NCBI GenBank assembly: GCA_043805855.1
Contig: JAZDHP010000006.1
Coordinates: forward strand, 1-15,560
Length of the DNA: 15,560 nt
DNA from: Candidatus Micrarchaeota archaeon
GTDB taxonomy: Archaea > Micrarchaeota > Micrarchaeia > Norongarragalinales > UBA8480
Direction: 5' to 3'
Shown: positions 3,720 through 15,560 of the stretch, piece by piece
How the letters are laid out: every line of letters begins with the position of its first letter
Numbering within the stretch: the stretch's first letter is position 1
Notes under the pieces: model-generated
What the model saw: only the letters and a program-made list of their open reading frames with translations
Database searches by the model: none
Told to the model about the DNA's origin: nothing
Made by a program: the position numbers and the translations under genes

Positions 3720-4703
3720 ATGAAATTAAATAAAAAAATGAAACTGGCAAACGCGTCGCAAAGCGCGGAAAAGAAGTCAACTCGCGACGGCTACGGCAAA
3801 GCAATGGTAGAACTAGGTGAAAAGAACAAAAATGTTGTTGCGCTGTGCGCGGATTTAACCGAATCAACTCGTTTAGAGTGGTTCAAAGAAAAATTTCCTG
3901 AACAGTTTATTGAAACAGGCGTAGCTGAACAAAACATGCTCGGCATGGCTGCAGGCCTAGCGCTAAGTGGAAAAATTCCATTCGCAAGTTCATTCGCAGT
4001 GTTCTCACCAGGAAGAAACTGGGACCAACTACGCGTCGGCGTTTGCTATACAAATGCAAATGTAAAAATTGCAAGTAGCCACGCTGGCTTAACTGTCGGC
4101 GAAGACGGAGCAACCCACCAAGCACTTGAAGACATTGCAATAACCCGTGTTTTACCTAATTTAAAAGTAATTGTACCTTGCGATTTCGAACAAGCGAAAA
4201 AAGCGACAATTGCAGCTGCAAAAGACAAATCACCTTGCTATTTGCGCTTCGGCAGGGAAAAAATGCCACAAGTTACAACTGAAAACACTCCATTCGTAAT
4301 TGGAAAAGCCGATATTTACGTTGAGGGAAGCGACGTTGCAATAATTGCATGCGGAATAATGGTAAACGAAGCACTCAGTGCAGCGAAAATGCTAGAAAAG
4401 AAAAAAATAAACGCTGCTGTTGTAAATTTACACACGATAAAACCACTTGACGAAAGTACAATTATTTCAATTGCAAAGAAATGCGGCGTCGTAATTACAG
4501 TTGAAGAACATCAAATGAACGGCGGAATGGGAAGCGCAGTTGCGGAGCTATTAAGCGAAAATTACCCAATTCCATTGAAACGCATTGGTGTACGCGATTC
4601 ATTCGGAGAAAGCGGAACACCAGAACAGCTTCTTGCAAAATACGGCTTAAATGCTGAAAATATCGCGAAAAGTGCTGAAAATATTTTGAAATTAAAAAAA
4701 TAA
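3720..4703 (+). CDS. tkt: Transketolase, C-terminal subunit
   Basis: Motifs TRDGYG, ADLTEST, GVAEQNM, HAGLTVGEDGATHQALED, TIKPLD and VEEHQMNGGMGSAV. Confidence 0.96.
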   Translation: MKLNKKMKLANASQSAEKKSTRDGYGKAMVELGEKNKNVVALCADLTESTRLEWFKEKFPEQFIETGVAEQNMLGMAAGLALSGKIPFASSFAVFSPGRNWDQLRVGVCYTNANVKIASSHAGLTVGEDGATHQALEDIAITRVLPNLKVIVPCDFEQAKKATIAAAKDKSPCYLRFGREKMPQVTTENTPFVIGKADIYVEGSDVAIIACGIMVNEALSAAKMLEKKKINAAVVNLHTIKPLDESTIISIAKKCGVVITVEEHQMNGGMGSAVAELLSENYPIPLKRIGVRDSFGESGTPEQLLAKYGLNAENIAKSAENILKLKK

Positions 4704-4765
4704 TGTAAAAAACAACTAATTTTTACCTCTAGAAAAATATTTTTACAAATTTCTGAAAAAAATTG

Positions 4766-4780
4766 CGAAACGCTTTTATT
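4766..4780 (+). promoter_or_regulatory. Putative BRE-TATA promoter for the micro-ORF
   Basis: CGAAA-cgc-TTTTATT. The predicted TSS (~4803) lies upstream of SD GAGGTGA (4820-4826). Confidence 0.5.
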
Positions 4781-4833
4781 CTAACTCTGTATTACAATTG
4801 TATCTAGAAAACCCCAAACGAGGTGAAAATAAA

Positions 4834-4887
4834 TTGGCAGCAAAGAAAAAAGGCAAAGGTAAAGCAAAAGCAAAGAAGAAACGCTAA
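4834..4887 (+). CDS. 17-aa Lys-rich microprotein MAAKKKGKGKAKAKKKR (TTG start)
   Basis: Strong SD GAGGTGA 7 nt before TTG 4834 and TAA at 4885-4887. It occupies a 350-nt gap with no other gene, with a promoter-like element upstream and T-tracts downstream. Confidence 0.7.
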   Translation: MAAKKKGKGKAKAKKKR

Positions 4888-4910
4888 ATAAAACGCAATT
4901 ATACGGAAAT

Positions 4911-4978
4911 AAACGCGTATATTTTTGATGCAACATTTTTTTCTCAACACGCGTTTCAATCTATCCTTTTCATTTTTT
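4911..4978 (+). terminator. Putative terminator after the micro-ORF
   Basis: AAACGCGT (4911-4918) / ACGCGTTT (4949-4956) inverted repeat enclosing T7 (4936-4942), with further T-runs to 4978. Confidence 0.4.
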
Positions 4979-5053
4979 AATATTTTTCACAGAAAAACCA
5001 AAATAAACTCATTCTACAAGTGCATTTTTTAACAAATATTACCTTAACTAGTC

Positions 5054-5770
5054 ATGGCGAAAGTTGTACTTGTATGGAACGAACACCCGACGGAAGTCGT
5101 AGCTGGTTTCCACGCGAGGAAAGTTGCGCAAATTCTACGAGAAAAATACGGACACGAAGTTGTAGTTGAAAAAATACCCGCAGCTGAAACTAATTATGGA
5201 ATAGCTAGAAAAATTCCAACTAGCAGAAAAAAAGCATCAACAAAAGTAGCTATACAAGCTATACTGCAGAGACTAGGCCAACGAGATTCAACATTGAAAC
5301 TAACCCAGAAAATGGCGCTAAAACACAATGCAATGGCATTTAACTTTCACGCCTCTGGAGCGCTAGCACTTGGCGAAGCACTTATAAGAAGAGCCAGTGC
5401 CTTTAGAATTGGAAAACTTATTGCATCTGATGAATTAAACTCAAGAACTACCTCGCCATATGAAATTGAATTCCATCAAAAACCAAACAAGCCATATGCC
5501 ATATCTATTGAAATGCCGGGAATGCTTTTTTGGTTACGCGGAAGCGTCGGAAAAAGAAATAAACAGCAAATAAAAAAAGCACAAAAAGAATTACTTGACT
5601 TGCAATATAACATGCATAACCCATTTGGCGCAGGCGCTAGCTTGCACGCCGATTACCAAAGAAACGTAATGAGACTCACTAGCCGAGCACAACGCAAATA
5701 CATTTCTCCAATTATTTCCGAAAAAATCGCAGCAGCGATACACGAACGAATAACAGCTAGGCGAGCATAA
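5054..5770 (+). CDS. Hypothetical protein, possible M14/succinylglutamate-desuccinylase-like Zn hydrolase fold
   Basis: 238-aa ORF with a TATA-like TTTTTTAA at 5025-5032. Has HxxE (HPTE) after an N-terminal beta strand, then FNFH and SIE motifs. Confidence 0.6.
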   Translation: MAKVVLVWNEHPTEVVAGFHARKVAQILREKYGHEVVVEKIPAAETNYGIARKIPTSRKKASTKVAIQAILQRLGQRDSTLKLTQKMALKHNAMAFNFHASGALALGEALIRRASAFRIGKLIASDELNSRTTSPYEIEFHQKPNKPYAISIEMPGMLFWLRGSVGKRNKQQIKKAQKELLDLQYNMHNPFGAGASLHADYQRNVMRLTSRAQRKYISPIISEKIAAAIHERITARRA

Positions 5771-7468: not shown

Positions 7469-8236
7469 TCACCTTTTTAACGCCCTTTTAGCAACTCCAG
7501 TGAATTCCACGTCGCTGTCTTTCAACGTGCGGAACGGTTGTGCTGTTAGAGATTCTTCCAAAACGTGTGCCGCAATGCCTGCACTTCTTGCCAACGCGAA
7601 GAAACCCTTACCAAACTTATAATCAATACCCAATTCGCACAACAACGCAGCAACTGCGCCGTCAACATTTAAACATAGTTTCTTGCCGCTTGTTTTCTCC
7701 AACGCTTTTTCAAAATCCTCTGCAAATTTACAGTACTTGCCATAAATTTTATTCTCCTTCGCGATTTGGAACAACTTTTGAGTACGCGGGTCGATTGTGT
7801 AAACCTTATGTCCATAGCCTGGAGCGCGTTTCTTCTCTTTTTTCAACTCAATTGCAACTTTTTCTGGGTCAACGGCAACGTTTTCCATGAATAATTTCGC
7901 CGCGTTGTCAATTGCACCACCGTGATAATCCCCAATTGAAAGAATACCAGCGGCCATAGCGCTGTTAAAAGTGTTTCCAGCTGAATACGCATAGCGCGCT
8001 GCAACAATTGACGGAACGTTAATGCGATGCTCTGCACACGCTACTAACATGGCGTCGAGAACCTGCCGCTGTTCCTTTGATGGCAATTCACCTTTGATAA
8101 GAAGATAAATTTGCTCAGTGAAAGTGACTTTGCCGATTAAATCTTCCAAGTTATAGCCGCGAATGTAACTCTTCTCGTCAACATGCTGAGAAATAGCAGT
8201 TTTAAAAGACTTTTCTTCAGTTTTCTTTTCAGTCAT
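7469..8236 (-). CDS. ccl: Citryl-CoA lyase (stand-alone citrate-synthase-like domain)
   Basis: 255 aa with IRGYNLEDLIG, EHRINVPS, HGGA, PGYGHKVY..DPR, NVDG and ARSAGIAAH. Too short for citrate synthase and co-operonic with CoA-ligase subunits. Confidence 0.88.
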   Translation of the reverse strand: MTEKKTEEKSFKTAISQHVDEKSYIRGYNLEDLIGKVTFTEQIYLLIKGELPSKEQRQVLDAMLVACAEHRINVPSIVAARYAYSAGNTFNSAMAAGILSIGDYHGGAIDNAAKLFMENVAVDPEKVAIELKKEKKRAPGYGHKVYTIDPRTQKLFQIAKENKIYGKYCKFAEDFEKALEKTSGKKLCLNVDGAVAALLCELGIDYKFGKGFFALARSAGIAAHVLEESLTAQPFRTLKDSDVEFTGVAKRALKR

Positions 8237-8239
8237 TTT

Positions 8240-8839
8240 TCAATTCACCTTAAAGTTTAATTTAGATTCTTTTTCCAAAGCGCTTTCAAACACAAATTTT
8301 AAGTGCTCGTAAGATTCACGCATTTCGTCCTTGCATTCTTGGATTGTCAGCACGTTCCACTTTTCTTCAATCTTGTGAAAAACGTAAGATAAAGATTTTG
8401 AAAAAGAATCACTGCGCTTTCCTTCAATCCAAAGCAAATGTAAACTACCAATTGGCGGAAGGAATTTATACGCATCAGCGTTTGCGACGATTTCGCCTTC
8501 TAAATATTTATGCACCTTAGCATGATGTTCGCTCATAACTTGAAGTGATTTTTCAGCAAATTCCTTTGAAGCTCCAGCATCGCTAAGCACCTCGCGAGCA
8601 GCTACTAAACTTTCTTTAACGTGGTCTTGAACGCGGTTCTCTCGAAGACACGGGCCAATTCGCAAGTCACACAACCAAAGCGCAGTTTCAACTATTTGCT
8701 CGTCGCCCTTCATCTTTTTAGCTAGTGAAATTGCTTTTTCAATTGCCAAACGAGTGTAAATTTCTGGCGGCGCGTTGTTGTTCTGCGCTTCGCGTAACCC
8801 AACTTCGCGAATTGTTTGAATTGTTGTTTGACTTTCCAT
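8240..8839 (-). CDS. HD-superfamily-like protein with degenerate HD motif
   Basis: The pattern LAKKMKGDEQIVETALWLCDL...DH...EHH...EIVANADA matches HD-domain spacing, but has LCD in place of LHD. Confidence 0.65.
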   Translation of the reverse strand: MESQTTIQTIREVGLREAQNNNAPPEIYTRLAIEKAISLAKKMKGDEQIVETALWLCDLRIGPCLRENRVQDHVKESLVAAREVLSDAGASKEFAEKSLQVMSEHHAKVHKYLEGEIVANADAYKFLPPIGSLHLLWIEGKRSDSFSKSLSYVFHKIEEKWNVLTIQECKDEMRESYEHLKFVFESALEKESKLNFKVN

Positions 8840-8843
8840 TTTA

Positions 8844-9737
8844 TCACAGCACTTCTTTTAGTTTTTCAACTATTTCATGATGCGCTTCGGCAACTAACGC
8901 ACCTGCGTCGGCAAGCGCTTTTTTCTTTGCCTGTGGGCTGCCAGTTGAACCTTGTATAATTGCACCAGCATGTCCCAACTGCATGTTCTTTGGCAAGTAA
9001 TCCGCAAATAGCCCAGCAACAAACGCAACTACTGGTTTTGTGATTATTTTTTTCTTTATCAGTTCAGCGGCTTGCTCTTCGTACGTGCCGCCGAGTTCGC
9101 CGAACATTACGATTGCTTTGGTTTCCTTGTCGTTTTCAAATAGTTGCAACGCGTCTGGAAACGGCGTACCTGCGAGTACGTCACCGCCAATGCCAACTGC
9201 AGTACTCTGACCGTAGCCTGCTTGGCGCAATAACCACGACGTTTCGTTGGTCATTGACCCGCTCTTTGAAACAACGCCGATATTGCCCCTTGCGTAAATT
9301 CTATCCGGGTTGTTTCCCCCAATTGGGCCTAGCTTGCATTCGCCTGGCGTAATTATCCCAACGCTAGTTGGTCCAACAATGCGCGCTTTGCAACGAACAG
9401 CTTCGGCAATTACAATTGAAGTGTCAAAAATCGGCATGCGTTCGGTAATCACGTCAATTAGTTTTATCCCATTGGCCATCGCTTCGAGACAAGCGTCTCT
9501 AGCTGCAAATGGAGGAACATAAACAACCGAAGCATTAATACCGCTGTGATTAGCAAGCGCTTCTTTTACAGTGTCGTAAACTGGAATGCCACTCACTTCT
9601 TGCCCGCCTTTTCCGGGCGTAACGCCTGCGAGAATCTTCGTGCCGTAAGCTTTCATCTCCTCGCTGACCTTTGCTGCTTCGCGGCCAGTAATTCCCTGGA
9701 TTAAAACTTTAGTGTTCTTATTAACAAGAATGCTCAT
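8844..9737 (-). CDS. ccsB: Citryl-CoA synthetase small subunit (SCS-alpha/SucD-like, phospho-His subunit)
   Basis: IQGITG CoA-binding loop, GVTPGKGG, SKSGSMTNE, GIGGD, GELGGTYE and GHAGA (phospho-His). The CCS assignment comes from the partner subunit and the adjacent lyase. Confidence 0.8.
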   Translation of the reverse strand: MSILVNKNTKVLIQGITGREAAKVSEEMKAYGTKILAGVTPGKGGQEVSGIPVYDTVKEALANHSGINASVVYVPPFAARDACLEAMANGIKLIDVITERMPIFDTSIVIAEAVRCKARIVGPTSVGIITPGECKLGPIGGNNPDRIYARGNIGVVSKSGSMTNETSWLLRQAGYGQSTAVGIGGDVLAGTPFPDALQLFENDKETKAIVMFGELGGTYEEQAAELIKKKIITKPVVAFVAGLFADYLPKNMQLGHAGAIIQGSTGSPQAKKKALADAGALVAEAHHEIVEKLKEVL

Positions 9738-9738
9738 T

Positions 9739-10983
9739 TTAGTTTTTCACCTTTTTTGCAGGTTTAGCGCTTGATTTGCTAGTTGTTGCTACTCCCTTTT
9801 TAGCTTTGTACTTGTTTGCGAGTTCAACCATTATCTTTGCAGTTGAAGTCATCGGCGTGTCCGCACCGTAAAGGTGAAGATCAAGGCCAATTTCTTTTGC
9901 CAACTTGCGCATGATTTCAAAACCTTCTTTTTCTCCCGGACCAGCTCGGCGAATAACAATTGGAAACGCTGGCTTAATCTCACGCAGCGCTTGTGCAATG
10001 CCTTCAAACGTCACGTCAACGCGAGTGTTACTTGCAATTCCACCAGCAATCCAACAACCGTTTAACCCCGGCTTGCTGAGAATAACTTTTGTCAATTTGT
10101 ACATTTTTTCCGTTGGAGGGTTTCCGCCGTATTCAGTGTAATTCGCTGGCTTTCCACCAGCAACAAGCAACGCGTCTGTATTTGTCAATGACCCGCCACC
10201 GCCTGAAGTCATCATTGCAATATCTCCGTCAAGTTCAATATATTTTCCCGCAATACCACGGTGGTCGCCTTCGTCGATTTTCTTCGCGTCCAACTCGCGC
10301 TGTGTTGGCAAACGGTCAAACGCACTGCGTTGTTTAAACGTGAAATCTTTATGACGGTAAAGCGCATCGTCGTCCAAGATCATCGCAGTTCCAGCTGCAA
10401 CTACACTCCCGTCAGCAGTTAAACATAATGGATTAATCTCTACAATCGTCGCATCGCAGCCGACAAAACACTTGTACAACCGCGTTAGTGCGTCGGCAAC
10501 TTTTGGCATTGTTTCTCCAGTAAATCCAGCTTGCTTGCACAGTTCTCTTGCCTTCCATCCCTGGAGCCCGTCGAGAGGGTCAACTGGAAATTTCACTAAC
10601 TTTTCAGGATGATTCTTCGCCAACTCTTCAATTTCAATCCCGCCTTCGCTGCTTATCACAACAACGGGTTTCTTCTGCTGATCGTCGTAAACAATACTCA
10701 AGAAATACTCCGCCGTGATGTCAACTTTATCTTCAATGTAAACCTCGTGAACTGTTTGCTCGAGGATTTTCTTGCCAAGCATCTGACTAGCGGCGGCTTT
10801 TGCTCCTTCAATACTATCAACAATTTTAATCGCGCCTGCTTTTCCCCTTTTGCCAGCTAGTACCTGCGCCTTTACAACTCCTGCGCGATCTACTTCTTCA
10901 ACTTTTTGAAACACTTTACCTTGCGGTATAGCTATACCATACTTTGCAACAAGTGCCTTTGACTCATATTCGTAAAGTTTCAT
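9739..10983 (-). CDS. ccsA: Citryl-CoA synthetase large subunit (ATP-grasp + ATP-citrate-lyase-type citrate-binding domain)
   Basis: MKLYEYESK, VVKAQVLAGKRGKAGAI and EINPL mark the ATP-grasp domain. The C-terminal SGGGGS, ANYTEYGGNP, GGIASNT and IRRAGP follow the ACL pattern, not the SucC pattern. SD GAGGAG at 10997-10992. Confidence 0.82.
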   Translation of the reverse strand: MKLYEYESKALVAKYGIAIPQGKVFQKVEEVDRAGVVKAQVLAGKRGKAGAIKIVDSIEGAKAAASQMLGKKILEQTVHEVYIEDKVDITAEYFLSIVYDDQQKKPVVVISSEGGIEIEELAKNHPEKLVKFPVDPLDGLQGWKARELCKQAGFTGETMPKVADALTRLYKCFVGCDATIVEINPLCLTADGSVVAAGTAMILDDDALYRHKDFTFKQRSAFDRLPTQRELDAKKIDEGDHRGIAGKYIELDGDIAMMTSGGGGSLTNTDALLVAGGKPANYTEYGGNPPTEKMYKLTKVILSKPGLNGCWIAGGIASNTRVDVTFEGIAQALREIKPAFPIVIRRAGPGEKEGFEIMRKLAKEIGLDLHLYGADTPMTSTAKIMVELANKYKAKKGVATTSKSSAKPAKKVKN

Positions 10984-15167: not shown

Positions 15168-15200
15168 AAACTATTTACATCAAACAAAAAACCAAACTGC

Positions 15201-15208
15201 TTTTAAAC
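15201..15208 (+). promoter_or_regulatory. TATA box of the tRNA gene
   Basis: TTTTAAAC lies 34-27 nt upstream of tRNA position 1, which implies a short 5' leader. Confidence 0.6.
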
Positions 15209-15249
15209 TTGCAATAACAAAACAATTACAATATAGCCCCGTCGTCTAG

Positions 15250-15313
15250 AACCGCCTTTTTCTTTTTTAAAGAAAAAGGCCTGTTCGGCCCAAAAAGAAA
15301 AGCGGTCAGACAA
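15250..15313 (+). other. tRNA intron 1 (position 15/16, D-loop), 64 nt
   Basis: Central helix GTCT(15244-47)/AGAC(15308-11), bulges AG^A and AA^T, outer pairs TC/GG, and inner stem ACCGC/GCGGT with one extra C (relaxed BHB). Confidence 0.88.
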
Positions 15314-15336
15314 TGGTCAAGGATACGGGCCTTTGG

Positions 15337-15402
15337 AAAAAGGCCCTCTCATAAAGCCAGAGGTCTAAAAGGCCTGCGGCGATTGAGCGGCCTTTTAAGG
15401 CA
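15337..15402 (+). other. tRNA intron 2 (canonical 37/38), 66 nt
   Basis: Strict BHB: helix CTTT(15331-34)/AAGG(15397-400), bulges GG^A and CA^A, inner stem AAAAGGCC/GGCCTTTT. Confidence 0.92.
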
Positions 15403-15423
15403 AGCCTGCGACAGCGGTTCGAA

Positions 15424-15481
15424 CGGCTTTTCTTTTGAGAAAAGAAAAGACCGAGGGAAAAGAAAACCCTCAAACTGAAAA
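15424..15481 (+). other. tRNA intron 3 (position 59/60, T-loop), 58 nt
   Basis: Helix TTCG(15418-21)/TGAA(15476-79), bulges AA^C and AA^T, closed by the T stem outside and G15425-C15475 inside. Confidence 0.9.
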
Positions 15482-15519
15482 TCCGCTCGGGGCTATATTT
15501 TTCTTATACGTGAAACAAA

Positions 15520-15560
15520 ATGGACTGCATTTTCTGCGAGATTGTAAAGGGAAAAATACC
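15520..15560 (+). CDS. HIT-family protein, 5' end only
   Basis: Not in the ORF track. ATG 15520 reads MDCIFCEIVKGKI(P), the characteristic CxFCxIxxGxIP N-terminus of HIT hydrolases. Runs off the window. Confidence 0.85.
   Translation, partial: MDCIFCEIVKGKI

Follow-up and report, generated by a model that had tools for sequence, protein, structure and literature searches.

The question raised by this locus is whether a 17-codon, lysine-rich open reading frame lying between two longer genes is a real gene and, if so, what its product does. The window analysed is the entire contig C6 (15,560 nt) of the source genome (G000), which has a size of 1.03 Mb in 67 contigs, is 92% complete and is archaeal by its 16S gene (1258 bits with the archaeal SSU model). 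The candidate micro-gene runs on the plus strand from a TTG at 4834 to a TAA at 4885-4887 (4834..4887) and encodes MAAKKKGKGKAKAKKKR, consisting of 9 K, 1 R, 4 A, 2 G and 1 M. This 17-residue micro-peptide would carry a charge of approximately +10 and, after removal of the initiator methionine, would have 16 residues and a monoisotopic mass of 1725 Da; judged by its composition, it is predicted to be disordered. It is housed in a 350-nt gap (4704-5053) which is bordered at the 5' side by the C-terminal half of a split transketolase (3720-4703) and at the 3' side by a plus-strand ORF of 238 aa (5054-5770) with no Pfam match, which has a homologue of 43% identity in the same-genus genome G003 and is absent from the same position in another, G002. 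An earlier reading made from the sequence only had called this the largest gene-free gap in the window, which holds among internal gaps but not for the window as a whole, as its end (15168-15560, 393 nt) contains no ORF of ≥ 60 aa.

Other features of the window include a ParE-toxin-like ORF (82 aa) and a MazE/AbrB-type antitoxin-like ORF (92 aa) on the minus strand (2230-2750), which overlap by 7 nt and sit between ribulose-phosphate epimerase and the split transketolase. A minus-strand run of genes at 7469-10983 resembles a split ATP-citrate lyase or citryl-CoA system and contains ATP-grasp_2 with Citrate_bind, CoA_binding with Ligase_CoA, a 199-aa ORF without matches and a citrate-synthase C-terminal domain. 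Searches of the window for tRNA and tmRNA were negative.

All of the ORF, Shine-Dalgarno (SD), 7-nt spacer, TTG, inverted repeat and T-tracts described in the sequence-only reading were located where it had placed them. The SD, GAGGTGA (4820..4826, plus strand), is followed by the 7-nt spacer, and its CGAGGTG is invariant in all four genus-level sequences that we compared. A TATA-box-like element, TTTTATTC (4774..4781, plus strand), is found with the start codon 60 nt downstream, the letters at 4766-4780 being CGAAACGCTTTTATT. Downstream of the gene, an inverted repeat (4911..4956, plus strand) with arms AAACGCGT (4911-4918) and ACGCGTTT (4949-4956) and a loop of 30 nt begins 24 nt 3' of the stop codon. 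Both a T5 tract (4922-4926) and a T7 tract (4936-4942) lie inside this loop (4922..4942, plus strand) and are kept in G002 and G003. Oligo-T terminates archaeal RNA polymerase, and these tracts are likely archaeal termination signals; as they are located in the loop, the helix would be unable to form in a transcript which ends at them. The helix is the only conserved one near the micro-gene, and its consensus fold has 11 pairs with one compensatory change (G-C to A-U, in G003), which is weak evidence given that only three genus sequences were available.

Promoter statistics were gathered for the source genome. TATA-like hexamers peak sharply at −31 to −26 of first ATGs, where 141 of 690 long ORFs carry one, and this position suggests that the mRNAs of this genome are mostly leaderless. 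The genome-wide peak of SD-like 5-mers is at −16 to −11. With a TATA box at −60 and an SD, the micro-gene would belong to a minority of leadered, SD-driven mRNAs, and the position of the box would imply a 5' leader of approximately 25-32 nt. The box matches the TTTAWA-type hexamers of the genomic peak, and CTTTTATTC is invariant in the four genus-level sequences despite the divergence of the surrounding flank. Of the BRE/TATA-like element proposed earlier, the TATA-like part is in place and the BRE-like part is unverified: CGAAA (4766..4770, plus strand) is present in the source genome but is not kept in G002, G003 or the metagenome relative L217, and the genome yields no BRE consensus, with no information (< 0.05 bit per position) upstream of the TATA hexamer in 141 TATA-aligned upstream regions.

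It should be noted that the signals seen in this single genome are within chance. The genome contains 41,923 start-to-stop ORFs of 10-40 aa, of which 120 have ≥ 50% K+R and 508 carry an SD-like 5-mer at −16 to −4; both features were observed together in 3 ORFs, compared to approximately 1.5 expected. It is the comparison with relatives which establishes the gene.

When 40 relatives were searched at the DNA level, strong matches were found only in the two same-genus genomes. The conserved block (4816..4990, plus strand) has 84% identity in G002 (query 117-290) and 79% in G003 (query 117-339), with the matches reaching from just 5' of the SD to approximately 100 nt beyond the stop, and the flanks outside it differ. 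A metagenome scan added one further genus-level relative (L217) among 19 loci. The G002 peptide is identical to that of the source genome, with 5 synonymous and 0 non-synonymous differences between the two genes, while the same differences read in the other five frames gave synonymous/non-synonymous counts of 0/5, 0/5, 0/5, 3/2 and 0/5. The analysis of synonymous changes that the sequence-only reading had proposed favours the frame of the micro-gene only. The peptide is MAAKKKVKAKKGAKKKR in G003 and MAAKKKGKATKKSAKKKR, with one additional codon, in L217, and divergence within the genus reaches 5 of 17 residues. The TATA box, SD, TTG, MAAKKK, AKKKR and TAA are invariant in the four genus-level sequences, and swaps in the middle of the peptide are limited to G, A, V, K, S and T. 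Length differences in 4 other close pairs are of 3, 6, 9 and 9 nt, all multiples of three. Neither disruption of the frame nor loss of the SD, the two changes which the earlier reading had named as evidence against a gene, was seen in the close relatives. Because the changes relative to G002 are synonymous in this frame only, indels are in frame and the start, SD and stop are conserved, the micro-gene is coding; it is real and under purifying selection.

Two longer forms of the product were considered and rejected. A 29-aa form starting from a TTG at 4798 is possible in the source genome, where the frame is open upstream, but this extension is closed 5 codons upstream in both G002 and G003, so that the 17-aa form is the conserved one. 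For readthrough of the TAA, sequences compared by eye showed that the downstream frame is lost between G002 and G003 via a 1-nt indel.

We then searched for more distant members of the family by pattern, with the same pattern read backwards as the control. At the level of the order, DTGGCNGCNAARAARAAR gave 28 matches in 22 of 68 genomes, compared to 7 for the reversed control. These comprised 16 K-rich ORFs of 8-25 aa, 1 borderline case (G006) and a remainder of ordinary-protein N-termini or noise; the 16 K-rich ORFs have an SD, a TATA-like box upstream and a hairpin or T-tract at the 3' end. At the level of the class, a search for an SD with a short K-rich ORF, which had been suggested from the sequence alone, was carried out as GGTGA 5-10 nt upstream of MAAKKK and gave 23 matches in 22 of 401 sampled genomes compared to 0 for the reversed control, with 20 of the 23 being K-rich ORFs of 9-25 aa. 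An SD-like GGTGA, GGAGG or GGAG at 5-12 nt spacing was present in 31 of 31 archaeal members examined, and the 3' ends of other members have a G+C hairpin plus a T tract. Variant N-termini were found in the same taxonomic family (MVAKKKVAKKVAKKGKKR in G004, MAKAKKKTAKKKRK in G005 and MVMKKKAAKKKVASKKKPAKKKR in G007), at least 6 of whose 12 genomes carry a member; members were ascertained by the SD + MAAKKK pattern, which makes all such counts minimum figures and accounts for part of the conservation at the N-terminus. A six-frame profile search of the 68 genomes with alignment A4 gave 3 weak matches and missed the copy in the source genome. Two genomes of this taxonomic family also have Lys-rich micro-ORFs with a cysteine-cluster end: MAAKKKVARKKSGSKRKCCCC (21 aa) at L038 (minus strand of G006:C12, with the ORF starting at position 268 of the reverse complement) and MEEENKEDKKMKSKKKCGCC (20 aa), which has an SD, at L200 (G005:C36).

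Applied to all prokaryote species genomes, the strict pattern gave at least 120 loci. Among the matches listed, look-alikes occur in about a dozen bacterial phyla and in other DPANN archaea by record label, although labels of metagenome-assembled genomes may be wrong. The bacterial titles include Acidobacteriota/Thermoanaerobaculia, Eisenbacteria, Verrucomicrobiota, Methylomirabilota, Nitrospirota, Chloroflexota, Eremiobacterota, Dormibacterota and Patescibacteria, with some records labelled, possibly wrongly, as Bifidobacterium or Gammaproteobacteria; the archaeal titles, subject to the same doubt, include Aenigmatarchaeota, Woesearchaeota and Nanoarchaeota. One look-alike gene (L086) is located on a bacterial chromosome of 5.9 Mb. 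Pooling the loci from all of the searches gave 124 distinct MAAKKK ORFs of ≤ 40 aa, of which 99 have ≥ 45% K+R. None of these 99 contains D or E, and all but 1 are built entirely from K, R, A, G, S, T, P, V and M; the other 25 are mostly random-looking. In length, the micro-ORFs grade continuously into MAAKKK-start proteins of 41 to > 139 aa that have AKK repeats. The micro-gene of the source genome has the features which define the class, being Lys-rich, 8-40 codons long and free of acidic and aromatic residues, with an SD of its own and a 3' end that resembles a terminator. These comparisons show that it belongs to a widespread, unannotated family of MAAKKK...K/R ORFs.

The sequence-only reading had held that such a gene falls below the cut-offs of gene callers, and this agrees with our finding that 0 of 10 relatives of 20-37 aa were present in a collection of 15 billion proteins. 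No description of stand-alone polylysine micro-genes was found in full-text searches of the literature outside subscription journals and supplements. New here are members in archaea (DPANN) whose promoters are of archaeal type, a tally for the class with a reversed control, the six-frame substitution test and the statistics on poly-A avoidance and stop codons.

For the last of these we used 96 distinct member ORFs from loci L012-L225, with lengths of 8-37 aa (median 18) and a composition of 59% K and 27% A. Lysine was encoded by AAG 702 times and by AAA 325 times. A-runs cause slippage. Runs of ≥ 9 A were found in 0 of the 96 members, compared to 22.4 expected when the Lys codons were shuffled within each ORF, and 0 of 1000 shuffles reached the observed value; this figure, and that for stop codons, is descriptive because kin among the 96 members are not independent. 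The avoidance of slippery poly-A is consistent with a frame which needs to be read faithfully. The stops were TAA in 67 members, TAG in 28 and TGA in 1, though many of the carriers are G+C-rich bacteria. Tandem copies, each with its own signals, were found in G023 and G027, at L101 and at the bacterial loci L148 and L151. Together, the tandem copies and the use of stop codons are hints of dosage effects and high expression.

The surroundings of the micro-gene bear on whether it acts alone. The gene order in G003 is transketolase, micro-gene, homologue of the 5054 ORF and glutaredoxin, while G002 has retained the micro-gene and its 3' block beside a convergent glutaredoxin. From 53 nearest-neighbour ORFs across the loci, the longer 32 were compared to Pfam and 15 matched. 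The 13 Pfam-supported downstream neighbours (7 convergent, 6 co-directional) belong to 12 families, with IF-2B the sole family seen twice, in two close relatives. We found no ribosomal-protein cluster around the micro-gene in the loci examined, and no transporter or processing gene recurring beside it. The claim of a stand-alone unit was borne out by these differing, half-convergent neighbours and by the persistence of the gene in G002 without the 5054 gene, and the micro-gene is a predicted self-contained unit of transcription and translation.

The same evidence bears on the proposal that only the act of translation matters, as in a Lys-tRNA sensor, stalling on lysine runs or an attenuator, with the peptide being incidental. 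We consider this very unlikely, although the ORF, inverted repeat, T tracts and co-directional gene of the source genome and G003 do follow an attenuator-like order, and members of 8-10 codons would scarcely exit the ribosome tunnel before release. Members of 8 residues may also be too short-lived as free peptides, which would favour a function of translation itself or of the RNA. However, an attenuator leader peptide was rejected as there is no conserved co-directional downstream operon: neighbours differ, about half are convergent, and G002 keeps the micro-gene and downstream block without the next gene. An attenuator structure overlapping the end of the ORF was rejected too, as the sole conserved helix is clear of it, starting 24 nt past the stop, and the predicted transcript fold was no better than that of shuffled sequences (z = +1.33). 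Long A-runs, which are prone to stalling and sliding, are avoided rather than enriched.

Several other explanations were weighed against a free nucleic-acid-binding peptide. The sequence-only reading had itself offered a previously unrecognised tiny ribosomal protein, and a site-specific ribosomal or ribosome-associated microprotein, filling an rRNA pocket as a new analogue of eL41, bS22, bL37 or bTHX, would share its size, charge and strong expression signals with the tiny ribosomal proteins that were found only by cryo-EM. Ala/Lys-rich extensions reported on uS19 of Parcubacteria (PMC9297842) also point in this direction. We nevertheless judge it unlikely: lengths range from 8 to 37 aa, conservation is limited to composition, length range and ends, with 5 of 17 residues differing within the genus, every locus examined lies outside ribosomal-protein clusters, a 28-member profile matched no PDB chain at E up to 10, and the genuine eL41/eS32 is elsewhere in the genome. 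It is quite unlikely that this is a cationic peptide exported by an episymbiotic archaeon, with an antimicrobial role or one in membrane or host contact. Short oligolysine peptides are membrane-active and DPANN archaea have a host-attached lifestyle, both of which would suit such a role, but the peptide has neither a signal peptide nor hydrophobic residues, no transporter or processing neighbour recurs, and the same class is found in free-living bacteria with large genomes.

It is highly improbable that the product is instead a purine-rich RNA, such as a sponge for an Sm/Hfq-like protein which binds A-R-N repeats, or that the true gene is antisense. The AAR repeats do fit the A-R-N motif bound by Sm/Hfq-like protein, and the source genome does have open antisense frames of 51 aa. 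Against this, the start, SD and stop are conserved, changes are synonymous only in the plus frame, indels are in frame, and Rfam 15 gave 0 matches for the whole window at E up to 1. On the minus strand, the frame and start of the ORFs vary between the source genome, G002 and G003, one ORF is interrupted in G003, and substitutions in these frames are non-synonymous. A type I toxin/antisense pair was rejected for the same variation in the minus-strand frames, and there is no conserved hydrophobic small ORF. Finally, a functionless chance ORF in an A-rich spacer is barely credible. Short K-rich ORFs are indeed common in the source genome, and their co-occurrence with an SD is close to expectation, but chance is contradicted by all of the comparative evidence (selection, frame, family and A-run avoidance), and the differing flanks exclude the relatives being assembly duplicates.

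The reading we prefer, to which we give about an even chance, is that the micro-gene encodes an abundant oligolysine acting as a counter-ion for nucleic acids and perhaps for polyphosphate. A TATA-type promoter approximately 60 nt upstream would produce a short leadered mRNA, on which the strong SD would bring ribosomes to the TTG start, and transcription would stop at the downstream oligo-T tracts. The product would be an abundant, sequence-independent polycation, in effect a gene-encoded oligolysine, which would bind polyanions such as DNA, rRNA, other RNA and possibly polyphosphate electrostatically. Neutralisation of charge would then promote compaction or annealing, akin to the action of polyamines or of histone-H1-type tails. 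Judging by composition, binding of nucleic acids by charge is probable. Charge, K/A/G-type composition, the MAAKKK start, the AKKKR end and the reading frame are kept, while internal sequence and length vary, as does copy number, which argues for a disordered polycation working by bulk electrostatics rather than a protein fitted to one site.

The sequence-only reading had suggested a DNA condenser for an ultra-small cell. This is weakened by the finding that the genome encodes both a histone and Alba, so that the peptide would not be the sole chromatin protein and there is no chromatin gap for it to fill, and also by the look-alikes in large bacterial genomes such as that of L086. Regarding polyamine synthesis, Spermine_synth was below the cut-off, PvlArgDC and AdoMet_dc were not found in this 92% complete genome, and a gene of the arginase/agmatinase family is present. 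A polyamine-like role would fit this pattern, which does not amount to evidence for it. We would put forward only tentatively, and with some doubt, the broader idea that many archaeal and bacterial phyla carry oligolysines of 8-37 codons as bulk counter-ions for ribosomes, RNA and the nucleoid, partly replacing polyamines in lineages such as this archaeon, in which genes for spermidine synthesis were not found. If this is true, gene-encoded oligolysines would rank with the shortest protein-coding genes known to be conserved and would constitute a ribosomally made equivalent of polyamines.

If the peptides are made, they would represent a large and phylogenetically wide class of genes which is invisible to gene callers, profile searches and standard proteomics, the last because trypsin destroys the peptide. 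Cells have few means of neutralising the charge of nucleic acids, and a genetically encoded polycation would join them; the peptides would also bear on how minimal cells, DPANN and CPR among them, are modelled. As the family avoids long A-runs, it would also offer a simple system for studying how ribosomes handle runs of lysine. For annotation, the case shows that genes of only 8-25 codons can be conserved and that patterns combining signals and composition detect them.

Among known systems, eL41/eS32 (25-39 aa, in eukaryotes and archaea) is similar: it too is very small and extremely basic, has a stand-alone gene and often goes unannotated. It is, however, Arg-rich with a conserved RWKW..KKR..R.KR, whereas the micro-peptide lacks W, contains a single R and is not conserved in its internal sequence. 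The sequence-only reading had set the two apart, and rightly so: the source genome has its own eL41/eS32 of 37 aa on another contig (G000:C45:13346-13456, minus strand), which matches the archaeal chains 9fny_A2 (E 2.2e-7) and 6skf_Bk (E 4.2e-7). Identity of the micro-peptide with eL41/eS32 (PF05162) was rejected on the basis of this genuine copy and the 28-member profile, which matched nothing in the PDB at E up to 10. While this eL41 can still be aligned to distant archaeal eL41, the micro-peptide family is conserved in composition and ends only. Scans of Pfam and NCBIfam with the 29-aa extended frame and 9 relatives of 20-37 aa gave 0 matches, but these scans are insensitive to short members, as they missed the true eL41 as well; a PF05162 search of the source genome gave only E = 5.96, and no control genome was above the cut-off. 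The bacterial bS22, bL37 and bTHX, tiny basic ribosomal proteins which were unannotated until seen in cryo-EM maps, are of the same size class and charge, but they are conserved in sequence and occupy defined rRNA sites, whereas the micro-peptide profile has no PDB match. Amino-acid operon leader peptides such as trpL and hisL, in which a very short ORF rich in one residue is followed by a hairpin and T tracts, resemble the layout of the micro-gene, which differs in having no conserved downstream operon and in that half of its neighbours are convergent.

Chlamydial Hc2 (PF07382), NF038053 hist_H1_lk_Burk and Pseudomonas AlgP share K/A-rich low complexity with the micro-peptide but are roughly 100-240 aa long, compared to 8-37 aa for the micro-ORFs. 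AlgP is reported to associate with polyphosphate granules (PMC9239181). Nine of the longer MAAKKK proteins are AKK-repeat and H1-like, with best scores of 21.4 bits against HC2 (E 2.9e-4, cut-off 40) and 14 bits against NF038053 (cut-off 80). Formal membership of Hc2 or hist_H1_lk_Burk was rejected, as short members had 0 matches and these longer relatives were below the cut-offs. The source genome also has a protein with a long polycationic tail, in an open frame at G000:C22:383-895 (plus strand), with an acidic N-terminus, a zinc-ribbon-like CxxC...CC segment and an H1-like, Lys/Ala/Val-rich C-terminal tail of approximately 75 aa. Protamines, the adenovirus core peptide mu, spermidine and spermine are small polycations which neutralise and condense nucleic acids without sequence specificity; protamines and mu differ from the micro-peptide in being Arg-rich and eukaryotic or viral, and the polyamines in being metabolites rather than gene products.
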